From assembly GCF_988242995.1 (NCBI RefSeq), contig NZ_OZ547043.1: 64,000 bases of DNA; one strand, 5' to 3'. The first letter of the stretch is position 1. Each line of letters starts with the position of its first letter. Shown one piece after another: positions 8,890 through 45,357 of this stretch. The position numbers and the translations under genes were made by a program. The notes beneath the pieces are model-generated. The model worked only from the letters and a program-made list of their open reading frames with translations. It was not told where the DNA came from and searched no databases.

Positions 8890-9600
8890 TAAATATCCTC
8901 CGGCATAGCCGGAGGTTTTTCAAATGCGCCTGTAAGGCTCTGTTACCAGCCGCGCCCTAACAGGCGCACACGATCTGACATTTGCATCCAACTTCGTTAC
9001 TTACGGCCCGTAAACGGGCTGCCCGGATAGGGAATCGATAACTGCTCTCCCATTTTATCCTCTTCAAGCTGGTGCTTTATGTAGTCCTGTATCTTCGCCG
9101 TGTTCTTACCCACCGTATCGACATAGTACCCTCGGCACCAGAACTCCCTGTTTCTGTATTTGAATTTCAAATCCCCAAACTGCTCGTAAAGCATCAGACT
9201 GCTTTTCCCTTTCAGATATCCCATAAAGCCGGATACGCTCATTTTGGGTGGGATTTCCACAAGCATATGGATATGATCTGCGCAGCACTCTGCTTCCAGA
9301 ATCCGTACGCTTTTCCACTCACACAGCTTTCTCAAAATACTGCCTATCGCCCTACGCTTCTCTCCGTAAAACGCCAGTCTTCGGTATTTCGGCGCAAAAA
9401 CTATGTGATATTTACAGTTCCAGCGGGTGTGCGCTAAGCTCTTTTCGTCCCCCATTGGGACCCCCTTTTGATTTCTTGTTTGACACTTGCAGTTGCCAGA
9501 CCGCAAGGTGTTTTAACAAATCAAAAGGGGTTTTAATAACTGGCTCAAAGCTGAAAGCTTTCCGGAACCCCCAGCCTAGCTGGGGGTTTTCTGTGCACAA
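8890..9600 (-). mobile_element. IS200-type insertion sequence (IS200/IS605 family), about 0.7 kb; boundaries approximate
   Basis: Contains a 152-aa Y1 transposase gene flanked by subterminal hairpins at both ends (8897-8915 and 9566-9588), plus a long inverted repeat at about 9461-9529 over the tnpA start region (assumed to occlude the RBS). Not present at this position in K-12 as I recall. Confidence 0.7.
8997..9455 (-). CDS. tnpA: IS200 transposase TnpA (HUH / Y1 single-strand transposase)
   Basis: Track ORF 8997-9506; internal start MGDEKSLAHTRWNCKYHIVFAPKYRR...HIHMLVEIPP (HuH motif)...Y, 152 aa, typical IS200 TnpA. Confidence 0.85.
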   Translation of the reverse strand: MGDEKSLAHTRWNCKYHIVFAPKYRRLAFYGEKRRAIGSILRKLCEWKSVRILEAECCADHIHMLVEIPPKMSVSGFMGYLKGKSSLMLYEQFGDLKFKYRNREFWCRGYYVDTVGKNTAKIQDYIKHQLEEDKMGEQLSIPYPGSPFTGRK

Positions 9601-36772: not shown

Positions 36773-37534
36773 TCAAATAGCTAAAGCACTCATCGTGTTG
36801 TCCGTGTTCATACCGGTGTGCCTTTGACAACGGTACTCCTTCGAAACTCTCTTCGGACTGTTGCCGAAATGTTTGCGGAACGCATAAATAAAATATGATG
36901 TACTCGCATAACCACATTGTTCGGCAATTTTATTGACTGAACCTTCTACGCGTATCAAATTTTTTGCGTGCTGCATTCTGGCATCTAAAAGAATCTGTGA
37001 GAATGTCGTTTGCTCTTGCTTTAGTTTTTTCTTCAACAGGCTTTCACTGATGTACAGGCAGTCACAAATATCTTTCAGCTTCCATGGGTGCGCCAGCTTC
37101 ATGTTGACAATATTTCTCACTTTCCCGGAAACGGATAGCACACCGTTAGTTAATAGTGTAATGAAACCTTTGCATGCGGCAAAAATAGACAGGCAAGAAA
37201 AAAGCAAAAGTTCTGAAAAGTTATGATGATTGCGTTCTTCCGAGTTGAGATAAGCAATCATTTCATTAAGCAATCCCGTCGGTACATTTGAAGCACGTAA
37301 AAACTTCGCAGGAACAGGCACCGTCACTGTCTGGATGTTAGTGCATTGTAGATATTTTTTAATGGTGTTTTCATTAAATCCGATTTCTTTGAAATGCCGC
37401 TCATAAGGTTCAAAATGCGTACGAACAGCGTTATCTACCATCAGGATCTCGCCGTCAGAGAAGGCGTAATCTTTATCTAAAATGTTAGCGTTGAAGGCAT
37501 GATGAATAAATATAACAGAACAAACGAGCGACAT
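36773..37534 (-). CDS. ydeO: AraC-family transcriptional activator of acid resistance
   Basis: 253 aa with C-terminal AraC HTH; downstream of safA in the same orientation. Confidence 0.88.
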   Translation of the reverse strand: MSLVCSVIFIHHAFNANILDKDYAFSDGEILMVDNAVRTHFEPYERHFKEIGFNENTIKKYLQCTNIQTVTVPVPAKFLRASNVPTGLLNEMIAYLNSEERNHHNFSELLLFSCLSIFAACKGFITLLTNGVLSVSGKVRNIVNMKLAHPWKLKDICDCLYISESLLKKKLKQEQTTFSQILLDARMQHAKNLIRVEGSVNKIAEQCGYASTSYFIYAFRKHFGNSPKRVSKEYRCQRHTGMNTDNTMSALAI

Positions 37535-37602: not shown

Positions 37603-37806
37603 TTATTTCCAGTCTTGCAAACTATTGATAATGAAATGTGTAAGATCTCTTGCCATGCGACCCATTTCTGAAATGCCCTGCTGATCAATTGCCGAAAAAA
37701 TGGCTATCAACGTAAGTGTCAGCAACAAGACAACCACAATTACAGACATGATTTCTTTATAGTTGTCTCTTTGCATGATTTTGTTTTTCACTGTGGTCGC
37801 ATGCAT
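37603..37806 (-). CDS. safA: Small membrane protein connecting the EvgS/EvgA and PhoQ/PhoP systems
   Basis: About 65 aa with a single TM segment (IVVVLLLTLTLIAIFSAI); immediately upstream of ydeO. Confidence 0.8.
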   Translation of the reverse strand: MHATTVKNKIMQRDNYKEIMSVIVVVLLLTLTLIAIFSAIDQQGISEMGRMARDLTHFIINSLQDWK

Positions 37807-37917
37807 TTCAAATGTGTTTATTTAGCGGATAACGTTAAAAATCGTTAATCAGTATGATTAATATAACAGGCTGGATAAAAGAGGAAATAGGACTGGCACT
37901 TCAGTACTGAGCGGAGT

Positions 37918-37935
37918 TTCTTACAACTGTAGGCA
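37918..37935 (-). promoter_or_regulatory. EvgA-box-like inverted repeat upstream of safA
   Basis: TTCTTACAACTGTAGGCA resembles the EvgA consensus TTCYTACA-N2-TGTARGAA; about 110 nt upstream of the safA ATG. Confidence 0.55.
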
Positions 37936-38053: not shown

Positions 38054-40333
38054 TTAATTTGATGGCTCTAATTCAACAGGAATACTTTTATAGCCAGGAA
38101 TGCCACTTAATGGATCGTGGTTATCAAGTGTTAGCATGTGATTCGATTCTGGAAAATAGGTCACCAGTGAGCGGTCAGCCATAGGGTAAATGACCACTTT
38201 TAATCTATCCATGCGGCGTGAGCTTCGCTTACCGTCTGGCGTAAGCGCAATAAGATTAACTCTTTCGCCGTTTTTTACACGGCAAATTTTAGCTTGTTTA
38301 GCACTCATAAAGACCACATCTCGTTGACCGAATACCCCTCGATAGCGATCATCCATACCATAAATCGTCGTGTTGTACTGATCGTGACTGCGTACTGTCG
38401 CCATGACTAGCTTACTGTTAAACGCTGAAGAGGGATCTTCTAACAGCCCTTTACTGGTAATGAAATTAGCCTTACCTGACGGCGTCATCCAGCGCCTTTC
38501 AGCAGCTGCGTTTATCAGGTGAAAACCTCCAGTATGTCGGATGCGCTGGTTATAGTCGGCGAACTCTGGCAGCACAGCTTCAATGTCATTGCGAATGCGA
38601 TCATAATCTTCCACCAGATACTCCCAGGCTACCACGCTCTGGGGTAGTGCCGCCTGCGCGATACCCGCGACCACTGCACACTCTGATTTCAGCATTACAC
38701 CGGCGGGTTTTAACACGCCACGCGAGGCATGAATCATCGACATTGAATCCTCAACGGTTACCGCCTGCGCACCGCTTTTTTGCATGTCAATCTCGCTACG
38801 TCCCAGAACCGGCAGAATATAGCTATGCCGTGCGGTCAGCAGATGAGAGCGGTTAAGCTTAGTGGCTACGTGTACCGTCAGATCTAATTGTGTTAACGGT
38901 ACAGCGCTCGCTTCCCGATCTGGCATTGCCAGTGCAAAGTTGCCCCCCATGCAGATCAATGCTCGAGCCTGCCCCGTACATATTGCTTGCATGCTGGCAA
39001 TTGCAGCATGTCCAGGTGCATGAGGTGGGGTGAAACCATAGCGCTCACCCAGGCGAGCCAGAAACTCTGCAGACGGTTTCTCGGTGATACCGACGGTTCG
39101 GTCGCCCTGTACATTAGAGTGACCTCGTAGTGGGCAGATACCCGCACCAGGCTTGCCAATGTTACCTTTCATCAACAGCAGATTGACCAGTTGCTGTACA
39201 TTCTGGGTACCATGTTCGTGCTGAGTGATCCCCATTCCGTAACAGATAATGGTGCGTTCGGCAGCGGCATATGCATCAGCCAGTTCGGCGATTTGAGTCT
39301 GACTTAGTCCAGAAATACGTTCGATATCTTTCCACTCGGAATTGAGCACGTCACGGCGTAGCTCGTCAAAGCCGACGGTATGCGTTTGAATAAATTCGTC
39401 ATCCAGCAATGAGGGCCGACCTGCGGCGCTTGCAGCATCATCGCGCTCAATTAACAGGCGCATCATCCCCTTGAGCAATGCCATATCGCCACCAATGCGC
39501 ACGTTATAGTAGGCACTGGCCAACTGAGTCTCAGAGTTCGTCAGCATTTCAAACGGGTTTTGCGGTGCGGTAAATCGCTCCAGGCCACGTTCCTGTAGAG
39601 GGTTGATAGCGATCATTTTCGCTCCCCGTTTCACTAAAGCGCGCAACGAAGTCAGCATGCGAGGGTGGTTTGTACCAGGGTTATGCCCAATGCAAATGAC
39701 TAAATCGCATTTCTCAAAGTCTTCCAGCAACACGGTCCCTTTACCCACACCGATACTCGCTGCCAATCCCACACTGGTCGGTTCATGGCACATGTTGGAG
39801 CAGTCGGGAAAGTTATTGCTCCCGTATTCACGGGCAAAAAGCTGATAAAGAAAGGCAGCTTCATTGGAAGTGCGCCCCGAAGTATAGAATTCAACCTGAT
39901 TGGGATCACTATAGCTTTGAAGGCGAGCGCCAATTTCGTCGAAAGCTTGTTGCCAGCTTAATGGCTTGTAACAGTCGCTGACGTCATCATATTTCAAAGG
40001 CTGAGTGAGACGTCCCGCAGCCTCAAGCTCGTGATCTCCCCAGGTAAGTAATGATTGAACCGTATTCTCAGCAAAGAAAGAGGCATTTACCTGCTTATCC
40101 GTGACTTCCCAGGCGATTGCTTTTGCGCCGTTTTCACAAATGTCGAATGACGCACTGTGCTTAGGATCTGGCCATGCACATCCCGGACAGTCAAAGCCCT
40201 CTGGCTTATTCATGTCAAACATGGCAATAACATCCTGGCGTATATCCATCTGCTTACGTACTGCATTCGCTACGGATTTAACAGCACCCCAACCACCGGC
40301 AGCTCCCTGGTAGGATTCAATTTTTTTCTTCAT
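38054..40333 (-). CDS. ydeP: Molybdopterin-dependent oxidoreductase (formate dehydrogenase-like, acid resistance)
   Basis: 759 aa; N-terminal Cys cluster (CPGCAWPDP), molybdopterin oxidoreductase fold. Confidence 0.88.
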
Positions 40334-40581
40334 CTGCTTATCCTGTGTGGAAATGAATTATTAGGATTTGTAATAGCGATGATGCAAAGTATATACAAAG
40401 GGTTTATCGTCAACATGAATATATAAGAGTAGGGGACTACTCTCTTACTATTTTTACTCTATTATCGTTAAATAATAGAGTAGTATAAATACGATAAGTT
40501 AAGCATCATCTCTCATAGGGTTTAAATTAACATAATTCTCAATATAAAAAATAAGACTCTGGCTTCAATTGTGCGCGGATT

Positions 40582-40599
40582 TTCTTACAAGTGTAGGAT
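40582..40599 (-). promoter_or_regulatory. EvgA-box-like inverted repeat upstream of ydeP
   Basis: TTCTTACAAGTGTAGGAT matches the EvgA box pattern; about 250 nt upstream of the ydeP ATG. Confidence 0.55.
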
Positions 40600-40671: not shown

Positions 40672-41586
40672 TTATTCATAGATAAAAGTGACACCAATGA
40701 CTGACTGGACGGCTCCGGCTGCAACCTTGTTTCCTGTTTGTCCATAGGTTGCGCTTAAACCCAGAGGTACTTTGCTTTTATTTACTGTCCCCAGGGAGAC
40801 ATTTTCTCCTGTTGCCAGTGTTTTTCCATTACGCATCAGAGAGACACCCACGCCCGATGCTTTTGTTGCATCTGGTGCTGTGTTAGCAAACACTTGTCGG
40901 GCACTGTCAGTGGTGGCACCCGAAAGATAAAATGAGAGCTTTTGTTCGCTAGAGCAATATACACCAAGGGGTATTTCTGCGCTTCCAGGAAAGTCCGGGA
41001 GATTCACGGTGACATTACGACTATCAACGGTGCAACCGCCTGTTGGCATAACAACACTGTTATTTGAAATAATATTCCACGTAAAATTACGCGGATTTCC
41101 GCTTCCTAACGTGGCAATTTTATACATATGAATACGGGCAATAACTTCCCCTGCTTTTATGACAACTCCACCAGCCGCTCCGACTGGGGTAATATAGAGT
41201 TTTAACGGTAATGGCATCGGTGTCTTATCACCAATATCCAATACGTTGGTATTTGTCGTCAACGGGAAAGGGTAGGTCACATTATTCCAGTACAGTGATC
41301 CTTTATATGACTGTAGGGAGCCTGCGAAAGCTGATCCTTGTACCAGGTTTATATGATCAGTGTCGTACCAGCCGCCGTAATCATTCCAGCAACTTATATG
41401 CTGAGACAAGTCTACAACCAGATTCTGGCCCGGTTGTATTACAGGATCGAGATTAACATAAACAGAGGTTGTACCTGCTCCAATACTTGACCCGCCATCG
41501 ACATTACAACTGAAGGCAAAAACTTTGCCTGCCATTAATAGAAGATAAATACCGAACAGGACCTTTATACTGAATGTTTTACCCAT
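40672..41586 (-). CDS. ydeQ: Fimbrial tip adhesin, FimH-like two-domain
   Basis: 304 aa with signal peptide; last gene of the chaperone-usher operon; C-terminal pilin domain motif. Confidence 0.8.
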
Positions 41587-42705: not shown

Positions 42706-45357
42706 TTAGCGACAGATTGCTGTCTGCTGGTTCAGTAAGGTACCAGGAGAAACTTCAGGAAGCTTGTACTCGACAATACAGTTTGAGTTTTTATCTTTGC
42801 CCCATGAAACCTGTAATTTCCCTGACTGTGGAAGTCCAGTCAGATAAACCTGACCGTTTTCCGCGACAATGCTGCCATTTTTATTCTCACCATGTATGAC
42901 AATTGCACCGAATGGAACGCTCTTATTACCGTACTTCAACGTCATTAATACTTTCCCGCCGATTTGTGCATTAAATGTTGCTCTGGCAATAGCACCGTGA
43001 GTTGGGATGACAGTGACAACGGTTTCATCCAGTTCAACATTATCTGCAAGGGAATTCGCGTTAAGAGCGACACGATTTTCTCTATATTCTGTCGCAAATG
43101 GTAATATGGCATAGCCACGCCAGTCGGTATGAATTCCGGTCTGGTTCTCTATTTTGACATTATCAGCGCCAGGAGCCTTAACCAGAACCATTGTGTCGCC
43201 CAGCGGCTGACCAAAGGTGATGCCATCAGCATGAGCAATAATCCCACCACTCATTCCGTAATAAATCTGGCTGCTGTCACCACTCCGACTGTAACCGACA
43301 TTAGTATTACCGTAAGCTCCACGATAATTAAGAGAACTGTAACCACTGGTGGCAGACGATGTATTACCCCCGTGGGTGTTACCGACCTGAACGCTATAAT
43401 TCAGGTTATTATCCGGCAGCAGAGTGCCATAAACCCCCGATAGATTGGTCATACCGCCTTTCAAATCGTTTGACATACTGTAACTGGCGTTTGAATTACG
43501 AAATGCCGACTGACTGTCTGTACGCATCCAATGACTGAAGGGAACATTAAGCGTAAAAGCAAGTAAATGATCCCGATCGTTTTGCCATATATTATTGGAA
43601 TAGCTGTAATTCAGCGAAGTCGTAATATCACCAAACGGCACATTTAATCCAAATGATATTTGCTGGTCGCTGCGTGACGTGTTCCAGTAACTTTGGCGAC
43701 TGGCACTGAAAAATGTCGTACCGTAATTTCCAAGCTGCTGAGAGATGCTTATTTGTTCCTGACCACGCTTACTGTAGAACAGATTAAAATAATCAATAAA
43801 TTGTGTCTGCTCATTGCTGTCTCCGGTAGGAGGCTTGACGGTGTAACCACTCATTCGACTGTAGGCACTGTCGGATAAGTTATAAAAACCTTGCGTAGAA
43901 TAGCGATATCCTGCGACCTGGATATTGGTTCCCGTCTGGTAGAAGGATTTGCTGTAGACGGATTTAATCGATTGCCCGCTGTGACGGGTGCCATCTGCAA
44001 GTGTCGTATTGGCCTGCGTGATATCGAAAGAAAAGGCACCAAAAAGTCCTAAATCTTTACCAATACCAAGGTTGAAGGCTTGATAATCTTCTGCAATTTG
44101 CATTCCGCCATAAGGTGTCCAGTTTCCTTCCAGTCCATGCATCAAGCTACCTTGTATGAACTTGGGGGAGCTTTGCAGGTTATTTCCACTACGATATTCC
44201 CCCATGGCAAGCGCATAACGCGTATATCCAGCACGTTGGAGAACCGGAACAGACGAATAAGGAACATATAATGTCTGAATACTGCCGTCTGCCTCTTTTA
44301 TGGTTACTTGCAGATCACCACCATTGGCCGCAGAGTTGATATCATCAATAGTAAAAGGGCCGGGTGGGACAGTAGTCTGATAAACATCGTATCCATTCTG
44401 TTTTACACTCACTTGTGCGGTGCCGCGGGCAATACCATGAATCACCGGAGCGAAACCATGTTGGCTATCGGGCAACATCGCTTCTGTTGAATTTATTTTG
44501 AGGCCACGAAAGTTCACACTATCAAAAATATCGCCATCGGTATAACTATCACCTACCGTTAAGCGTGAGCGTAAGGGAATAATGTCACGTTCAGCCGACG
44601 TATTGATGTGCTGCCATTTATTGCTGTCAGATGAATTGCTACTCCCACTGTTATAACTCCACGTTGAGTTATCGCGCAGTCGCCAACTACCAATGTTGAT
44701 GCCACTCTGTAAATTCAAATATGCATAGTTGGATTTTCCTGCATTATGGTTACTACGATTATTAATAGAATTACCATTAAAACTATAGTTTAGAAGCCCA
44801 GCATTTATTCCTTCTTCCCACAGATCAGGAGAAACATAGCCGCGAGCCATTCTGCCAACATAAATTTGCGGAACGGAGAGTGACAAATGTTGCTGACCAA
44901 CATCAAACTCAGTTGATGCGTCGGCCAAACGATCCTGAAGTGGTGTGCATGCGCTGTTGTCCGGCACATGTTTTTCTGCCAAATGTTCTTTATTGTCTAA
45001 TAACGCTGATTTTTTTATGCCAAGACTGACAAGAAGATCTGTACTCAGGCATGGGATGAGATCTGCGTTATTATCATCTGCAATAAAAGTAATATCCCGA
45101 CTAGTCATAAATTCGTCGTTCAAATAAATGTCGACCCGATATGTACCAGGTGGTGCCTCGCGTCCCTTAGTAAAGGCGGATAAATCGACAGATTCAGCAA
45201 GATCATTGCTTAAAAACCGTGGATTAAAATAATACTCTGCGTCAACGGGAAATACCGCAGTTGCTAAGCCAAGGGCAATGGTAAGCCGTGCAAAGCGAGG
45301 CAGTAGTAACACCTGATGCATACGATATGCCTTAAATGCGGCACGAAAGGCTGTCAT
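42706..45357 (-). CDS. ydeT: Fimbrial outer-membrane usher, full length (FimD/PapC family)
   Basis: 883-aa uninterrupted ORF; as I recall ydeT is a truncated pseudogene in K-12, so here the usher appears intact. Confidence 0.8.
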   Translation of the reverse strand: MTAFRAAFKAYRMHQVLLLPRFARLTIALGLATAVFPVDAEYYFNPRFLSNDLAESVDLSAFTKGREAPPGTYRVDIYLNDEFMTSRDITFIADDNNADLIPCLSTDLLVSLGIKKSALLDNKEHLAEKHVPDNSACTPLQDRLADASTEFDVGQQHLSLSVPQIYVGRMARGYVSPDLWEEGINAGLLNYSFNGNSINNRSNHNAGKSNYAYLNLQSGINIGSWRLRDNSTWSYNSGSSNSSDSNKWQHINTSAERDIIPLRSRLTVGDSYTDGDIFDSVNFRGLKINSTEAMLPDSQHGFAPVIHGIARGTAQVSVKQNGYDVYQTTVPPGPFTIDDINSAANGGDLQVTIKEADGSIQTLYVPYSSVPVLQRAGYTRYALAMGEYRSGNNLQSSPKFIQGSLMHGLEGNWTPYGGMQIAEDYQAFNLGIGKDLGLFGAFSFDITQANTTLADGTRHSGQSIKSVYSKSFYQTGTNIQVAGYRYSTQGFYNLSDSAYSRMSGYTVKPPTGDSNEQTQFIDYFNLFYSKRGQEQISISQQLGNYGTTFFSASRQSYWNTSRSDQQISFGLNVPFGDITTSLNYSYSNNIWQNDRDHLLAFTLNVPFSHWMRTDSQSAFRNSNASYSMSNDLKGGMTNLSGVYGTLLPDNNLNYSVQVGNTHGGNTSSATSGYSSLNYRGAYGNTNVGYSRSGDSSQIYYGMSGGIIAHADGITFGQPLGDTMVLVKAPGADNVKIENQTGIHTDWRGYAILPFATEYRENRVALNANSLADNVELDETVVTVIPTHGAIARATFNAQIGGKVLMTLKYGNKSVPFGAIVIHGENKNGSIVAENGQVYLTGLPQSGKLQVSWGKDKNSNCIVEYKLPEVSPGTLLNQQTAICR

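Follow-up and report, generated by a model that had tools for sequence, protein, structure and literature searches.

The intergenic region upstream of ydeP in the window (the whole 64,000-nucleotide stretch of DNA that was analysed) raises the question of whether a short inverted repeat at positions 40582-40599 serves as an operator through which the regulator EvgA activates this gene. EvgS is an unorthodox sensor kinase which is activated by mild acid and phosphorylates EvgA, a regulator of the NarL/FixJ type, while EvgA activates ydeP, safA-ydeO, emrKY, yfdX, frc and yegR. The two branches of E. coli acid resistance that run from EvgS/EvgA to ydeP and from EvgA via safA-ydeO to GadE are textbook knowledge. 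In the work of Masuda and Church in 2003, gel shifts with EvgA were reportedly obtained on six inverted repeats of this kind from K-12, and mutation of the repeats upstream of ydeP and b1500-ydeO is said to have lowered both the EvgA-induced expression and the acid resistance. The EvgA box of K-12 ydeP was reportedly described as an 18-bp inverted repeat by the same authors and by Itou and colleagues in 2009.

Activation of ydeP transcription by EvgA has been documented (PMC11210196), and its EvgA dependence is also stated elsewhere, along with the presence of an EvgA site in all directly regulated genes (PMC4283999). Furthermore, binding of EvgA to the ydeP and safA promoter regions of K-12 is given as a review statement (PMC8147483), and inverted repeats at yfdX and yfdW are bound by EvgA (PMC3720670). 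The analysis presented here indicates that the inverted repeat at 40582-40599 is very probably the EvgA operator of the ydeP promoter, the published experiments having used K-12, in which the box differs at two positions. The site is already known as the K-12 EvgA operator, present here in another allele, and is not new; as a discovery, it matters little, as the operator was defined two decades ago. The use of the check lies elsewhere: it validates the motif recognition of the first-pass annotation, it shows that, in contrast to the spacer and one outer position, the core of the box is essentially invariant across >5300 genomes, and it fixes the geometry (box centre at ~-74.5) for this non-K-12 allele.

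The window covers the ydeO-safA-ydeP-F9 fimbriae locus of E. coli. When a 601-nt query across the site was searched, matches were obtained in 5330 of the 5426 complete E. coli genomes, strain FDAARGOS_536 being 100% identical; in the matching genomes, the genes on either side carry the annotations ydeP and ydeQ. The K-12 record displays the same gene order, i.e. ydeO, safA, ydeP, ydeQ, ydeR, ydeS and ydeT, all on one strand. In the window, the regulated gene ydeP is a coding sequence of 759 aa at 38054..40333 on the minus strand, as given by the list of open reading frames (ORFs) and by the annotation in matching genomes, and a 304-aa ORF on the same strand ends at 40672 (ORF list). Based on the ORF list and the K-12 annotation, safA (67 aa here) occupies 37603..37806 and ydeO (253 aa), downstream of safA, occupies 36773..37534, both on the minus strand. 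Apart from these genes, the usher ORF of the F9 (ydeQRST) fimbriae at 42706-45357 (minus strand) is intact and encodes 883 aa. In K-12, ydeT is a truncated fragment and yneL a pseudogene (PMC3966885), and the intact usher fits a non-K-12 strain. Among the matches listed, identity over the region amounts to 99% for O25b:H4 and to 100% for FDAARGOS_536.

The first-pass annotation had placed an EvgA-box-like site at 40582-40599, about 250 nt upstream of ydeP. TTCTTACAAGTGTAGGAT is indeed read at exactly these positions, the nearest ORF downstream on the minus strand being 38054..40333, and the distance measured from the proximal edge of the box to the ydeP ATG (40333, minus strand) is 249 nt. The box lies within the 338-bp ydeQ-ydeP spacer and, as an element without an assigned strand, forms an 18-bp imperfect inverted repeat, TTCTTACA-AG-TGTAGGAT, with the promoter-side half-site at 40582-40589 and the distal one at 40592-40599. 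The description as “EvgA-box-like” proved too modest, since the site is the orthologue of the K-12 ydeP EvgA box, TTCTTACAGGTGTAGGCT. This K-12 box occupies the orthologous position in the same intergenic region (97% identical overall), and it has the same half-site cores (TTCTTACA and TGTAGG) as well as the same distances to the -10 hexamer and to the leader start; the K-12 leader is 5 nt shorter than that of the window.

The consensus of the EvgA box, which we take to be the 18-bp inverted repeat TTCYTACA-N2-TGTARGAA (two 8-bp half-sites with a 2-bp gap), provides a measure of this likeness. Compared with TTCYTACANNTGTARGAA, the ydeP box carries one mismatch, at the final base. Allowing ≤1 mismatch, TTCYTACANNTGTARGAA has two matches in the 64-kb window, namely the ydeP box and a box upstream of safA at 37918-37935, as compared to 0.00 matches in 100 dinucleotide-preserving shuffles. 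Even at ≤3 mismatches, the window contains no matches beyond these two boxes, while the shuffles give 0.81 per window.

To guard against circularity, the pattern was sought in K-12 regions with other reported EvgA targets. Matches were found in the emrK-evgA spacer and upstream of frc, yfdX (twice, the second box being the weaker one), yegR, safA and ydeP; the other match in 48 kb of K-12 was one with three mismatches inside ydeO. The gadE gene is likewise given as an EvgA-bound target, but the 800 nt upstream of it in K-12 contain no box at ≤4 mismatches, and it was therefore not used for the weight matrix. The position weight matrix (PWM) was trained on the K-12 sites at other EvgA promoters only (emrK/evgA, frc and yfdX), with ydeP and safA excluded and yegR added later. 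Among the ~128,000 positions of the window, it placed the ydeP site at the top with 24.1 bits, followed by the safA site with 22.1 bits; the third-best site reached 9.6 bits, and the maximum over 30 shuffled windows was 16.5. Once yegR is included in the training, the score of the ydeP site is 23.5 bits, with 27.2 bits as the attainable maximum. The EvgA reading of the first-pass annotation is hence supported: every sequence property that could be tested is present, and the gene is reported to be activated by EvgA.

The distribution of the box across E. coli adds to this picture. An 81-nt query around the ydeP box was found in 5322 E. coli genomes, and the alleles were counted by searching for exact words, using 32-nt queries of which each possible 28-nt seed contains the box. 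Read toward ydeP, the window-type allele (ATCCTACACTTGTAAGAA) occurs in 1383 genomes, the K-12-type allele (AGCCTACACCTGTAAGAA) in 1757, the type C allele (ATCCTACACCTGTAAGAA) in 1772 and the type D allele (ATCCTACATCTGTAAGAA) in 394, together accounting for 5306 of the 5322 genomes (99.7%). The same four box alleles were seen when twelve upstream regions of differing identity were aligned. Polymorphism among the four is confined to the spacer positions 9/10 and to position 17, and the 14 core bases are thus fixed. This sparing of the core by natural variation agrees, if only indirectly, with the loss of EvgA-dependent expression reported for mutated repeats in K-12. The probability that three polymorphic positions would all fall by chance among positions 9, 10, 17 and 18 of the 18 is 0.005, a value that is descriptive only, as the grouping is post hoc.

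The box of the window has A at spacer position 9 and at position 17, where K-12 has G and C, respectively, and these two substitutions bring the window allele nearer to the consensus (one mismatch, compared to two in K-12). In terms of the PWM built from the other promoters, the window allele scores 23.5 bits and the K-12 allele 18.2 bits, a difference of ~5 bits. The K-12-type allele, with C at position 17, is carried by 33% of the genomes and has the lowest PWM score, as against 23-24 bits for the three other alleles, so that the ydeP box of laboratory K-12 may be the weakest of the common alleles. The natural alleles of this box may set different strengths of induction.

Beyond E. coli, 100,044 species genomes were scanned with a degenerate DNA pattern for a 15-residue YdeP peptide, which yielded 12 loci, only one of them (L007, a divergent Escherichia from the species-representative collection) being an informative Escherichia relative; this pattern gave no match in other Escherichia species. 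In L007, scrambled sequence with a 12-nt insertion lies on the distal side of the box, a single change is present in the core, and the stretch from the box to the leader start is nearly identical. The ydeP homologue of Yersinia rohdei, taken as a negative control, has no box within 2 mismatches. In E. coli strain BKQ37E (L023, NZ_CP170328.1), foreign sequence has replaced the upstream region and stops 2-3 nt short of the distal box edge, leaving the box and the promoter intact. The replacement sequence in BKQ37E adjoins IS5-like and IS3-like elements, and ydeQ has been lost from this position. A contig binned as ‘Candidatus Nanosynbacter’ (L014, JARKOR010000108.1, 13,117 bp) has a ydeP upstream region equal to that of K-12 over ~365 aligned bases (L014:2010-2375) and carries both EvgA boxes; the contig almost certainly belongs to E. 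coli and was mis-binned into a metagenome-assembled genome.

The evgAS genes lie outside the window. As evgA is present in 5398 of the 5426 complete E. coli genomes, it is very likely that the strain of the window encodes it as well. In E. coli NCM3722, CY598 and CY706, the top evgA matches are split into two parts spread over 1392 nt, and the annotation of the matched region shows an IS1A transposase; evgA in these K-12-derived strains therefore appears to be interrupted by IS1.

Explanations other than an EvgA operator need to be weighed against these observations. The palindrome might (also) be bound by another LuxR/NarL-type regulator of the acid network, for instance RcsB, GadE or a further paralogue, and not by EvgA alone. 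NarL-family proteins have similar half-sites, and the distal half TGTAGGAT, followed by AAT, is loosely similar to TAGGAT-type motifs. In addition, the acid-resistance network involves many overlapping regulators (PMC8147483). Nevertheless, the match is specific to the EvgA consensus, this consensus picks out the reported direct EvgA targets with few weak extras, and no evidence of another binder was found in the literature search, leaving a further regulator a highly improbable explanation. An equally slender chance is given to a structural role, in which the palindrome and its surroundings would act not as an operator but as a cruciform in the DNA or as a hairpin in the RNA, where the F9 (ydeQ) transcript has its 3′ end. 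The proposal draws on a perfect, GC-rich 9-bp inverted repeat, TGCGCGGAT/ATCCGCGCA at 40572-40580/40621-40629, which brackets the ydeP box with 40 nt between its arms; K-12 has this repeat as well, L007 has it with one G-U-compatible change, and the region lies directly downstream of the ydeQ stop codon. However, the RNA fold is unremarkable (z = -1.8, with 12 of 200 shuffles folding as well), the stem is not followed by a U tract, and the terminator scan was negative on the minus strand. Moreover, the safA box is equally conserved and yet has no flanking repeat.

Least credible of all is a functionless chance palindrome, to which only a marginal probability can be assigned. Nothing specific speaks for it, the shuffles giving 0.81 matches per window once 3 mismatches are allowed; however, no match is expected at ≤1 mismatch, and both matches are situated upstream of the window's two reported EvgA targets. 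The invariance of the core in 99.7% of the genomes, with all polymorphism at degenerate positions, likewise argues against chance.

For K-12, the ydeP leader used in the literature is 178 nt long, and the forward primer starts the transcript at ATGAGAGATGATGC (PMC11210196). With the first A of ATGAGAGATGATGC taken as the transcription start on the strength of this primer design, ydeP transcription in the window would begin at 40516 on the minus strand. This leader start is invariant in all aligned strains, and an indel of 5 nt makes the leader longer here (183 nt) than in K-12. Given a start at 40516 and a box centre at 40590.5, the box is therefore situated at ~-74.5. The predicted -10 hexamer of the EvgA-dependent promoter, TAATTT (40524..40529, minus strand), is positioned 7 nt before the published start of the leader and is invariant in 12 aligned sequences, including the divergent Escherichia. 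The -35 region is T-rich and poor, as expected of an activator-dependent promoter. When the promoters are aligned on the box, the -10-like hexamer is found at +53..+58 for both ydeP (TAATTT) and safA (TATATT), at +54..+59 for emrK and the proximal yfdX box, and at +52..+57 for frc, with the offset shifted by 4 nt for yegR. This common spacing from box to hexamer speaks independently for the start site and for an activation geometry common to these promoters.

A different hexamer pair, TTGAAG-16-TATATT, was proposed by the promoter scan and would put the box at -56.5. As the main ydeP promoter, it was judged less likely and set aside on three points: the published leader starts 18 nt further downstream, the -10 of the pair loses its key A in L007, and no equivalent -10 hexamer is present at safA.

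The first-pass annotation had further held that the window contains two EvgA-controlled promoters, and this claim stands, as the second box upstream of safA is real. This box (TTCTTACAACTGTAGGCA, 37918..37935, no strand assigned) is situated in the safA-ydeO promoter, 112 nt upstream of the safA ATG, and the predicted -10 hexamer TATATT lies at 37860..37865 on the minus strand. The two boxes have the proximal half-site TTCTTACA in common, and 52 nt separate the box end from the -10-like hexamer in both. They differ in the distal half, which ends in GGCA at safA and in GGAT at ydeP, and in the flanking 9-bp inverted repeat, which belongs to the ydeP box only; the leader would also be much shorter at safA (~46 nt) than at ydeP (183 nt). 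When 37860-37935 is set against 40524-40599, the two promoters agree at 37 of the 60 positions that follow the box, which suggests either a duplicated promoter module or a strong common constraint.

Similarity among EvgA promoters also extends beyond the box. The stretch between the ydeP box and the -35 region (40551..40573, minus strand) is fully conserved in the 12-sequence alignment and includes positions that do not vary from promoter to promoter. Across six EvgA promoters (ydeP, safA, emrK, yegR, frc and the proximal yfdX box), C+9, A+10, T+26, C+27 and T+31 are invariant, i.e. five columns compared to 0.07 expected; tested against circular-shift nulls, the best 5-column block has P ≤ 0.007, and this holds even for four promoters that are not paralogous. 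At ydeP, these columns correspond to window positions 40573/40572 (C+9/A+10), 40556/40555 (T+26/C+27) and 40551 (T+31), or to about -57/-56, -40/-39 and -35 relative to the ydeP start. Furthermore, the TCYTA-like pentamer at +26..+30 has a counterpart in the distal half-site, the two being 42 bp, or four helical turns, apart.

It can be proposed, tentatively and with considerable doubt, that EvgA promoters share more than the 18-bp box, with additional protomers of EvgA, or contacts of EvgA with RNA polymerase at fixed positions, extending down to -35 as for BvgA, and that the alleles of the ydeP box set the strength of induction. A second EvgA box between the ydeP box and the -35 region was not found at ≤3 mismatches. 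Secondary half-sites considered between the box and the promoter match at most 4-6 of 8 positions, and a hypothetical adjacent site for a second dimer was discarded as a poor fit (2/8 at its second half-site).

Regulators related to EvgA provide the background for such a proposal. BvgA of Bordetella is a paralogue of EvgA; at fha/ptx it resembles EvgA as a NarL-family regulator served by an unorthodox His-Asp-His-Asp phosphorelay, and the operators of both are inverted repeats of T/C-rich, heptamer-like half-sites located far upstream of the start. In Bordetella, several BvgA dimers are known to extend from the primary site to -35, whereas ydeP displays one clear box. The 7-2-7 sites of NarL are similar to the EvgA box in having inverted half-sites 2 bp apart that accommodate a dimer of the NarL/FixJ type; however, the regulator is a different one, and the NarL half-site is TACYYMT compared to TTCYTACA for EvgA.

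A putative sequence of events at ydeP would open with the established step, i.e. phosphorylation of EvgA by EvgS under mild acid. The EvgA dimer, a NarL/FixJ protein with a helix-turn-helix, would then bind TTCTTACA and TGTAGGAT, 2 bp apart, as has been reported for K-12 and as is to be expected for this allele; TTGTTAGA is an example of a core-mutated version of the half-site TTCTTACA. From ~-74.5, EvgA may recruit or stabilise RNA polymerase at a promoter with a recognisable -10 (TAATTT) and a poor -35, as judged from the spacing alone, and the route could involve either the alpha C-terminal domain or further EvgA protomers. The resulting transcript would consist of the 183-nt leader followed by ydeP. 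The second EvgA box, at 37918-37935 and of the same architecture, would drive safA-ydeO, and the window would therefore hold two EvgA-activated promoters of the acid-resistance cascade.

The 5′ leader of ydeP (40334..40516, minus strand) is predicted to be strongly structured, with a minimum free energy of -41.8 kcal/mol, a z-score of -4.1 compared to mononucleotide shuffles and a closed multi-branch structure. The consensus fold contains a conserved long-range helix, GAGAUGAUGC/GCAUCAUC, along with two hairpins. Between the window and K-12 alleles, a compensatory change from C-G to A-U is seen in one stem of the leader. No family was detected by the Rfam scan in the ydeQ-ydeP intergenic region or the ydeP leader. 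The structured leader and the invariant positions upstream of the start are modest leads for studies of EvgA activation and not findings. Elsewhere in the window, Rfam matches above the gathering score were obtained for the Hfq-binding sRNA STnc490 at 9465-9588 on the minus strand (146 bits) and for the selenocysteine insertion element SECIS_3 at 1462-1520 on the plus strand (84 bits), the latter presumably lying inside a formate dehydrogenase gene.
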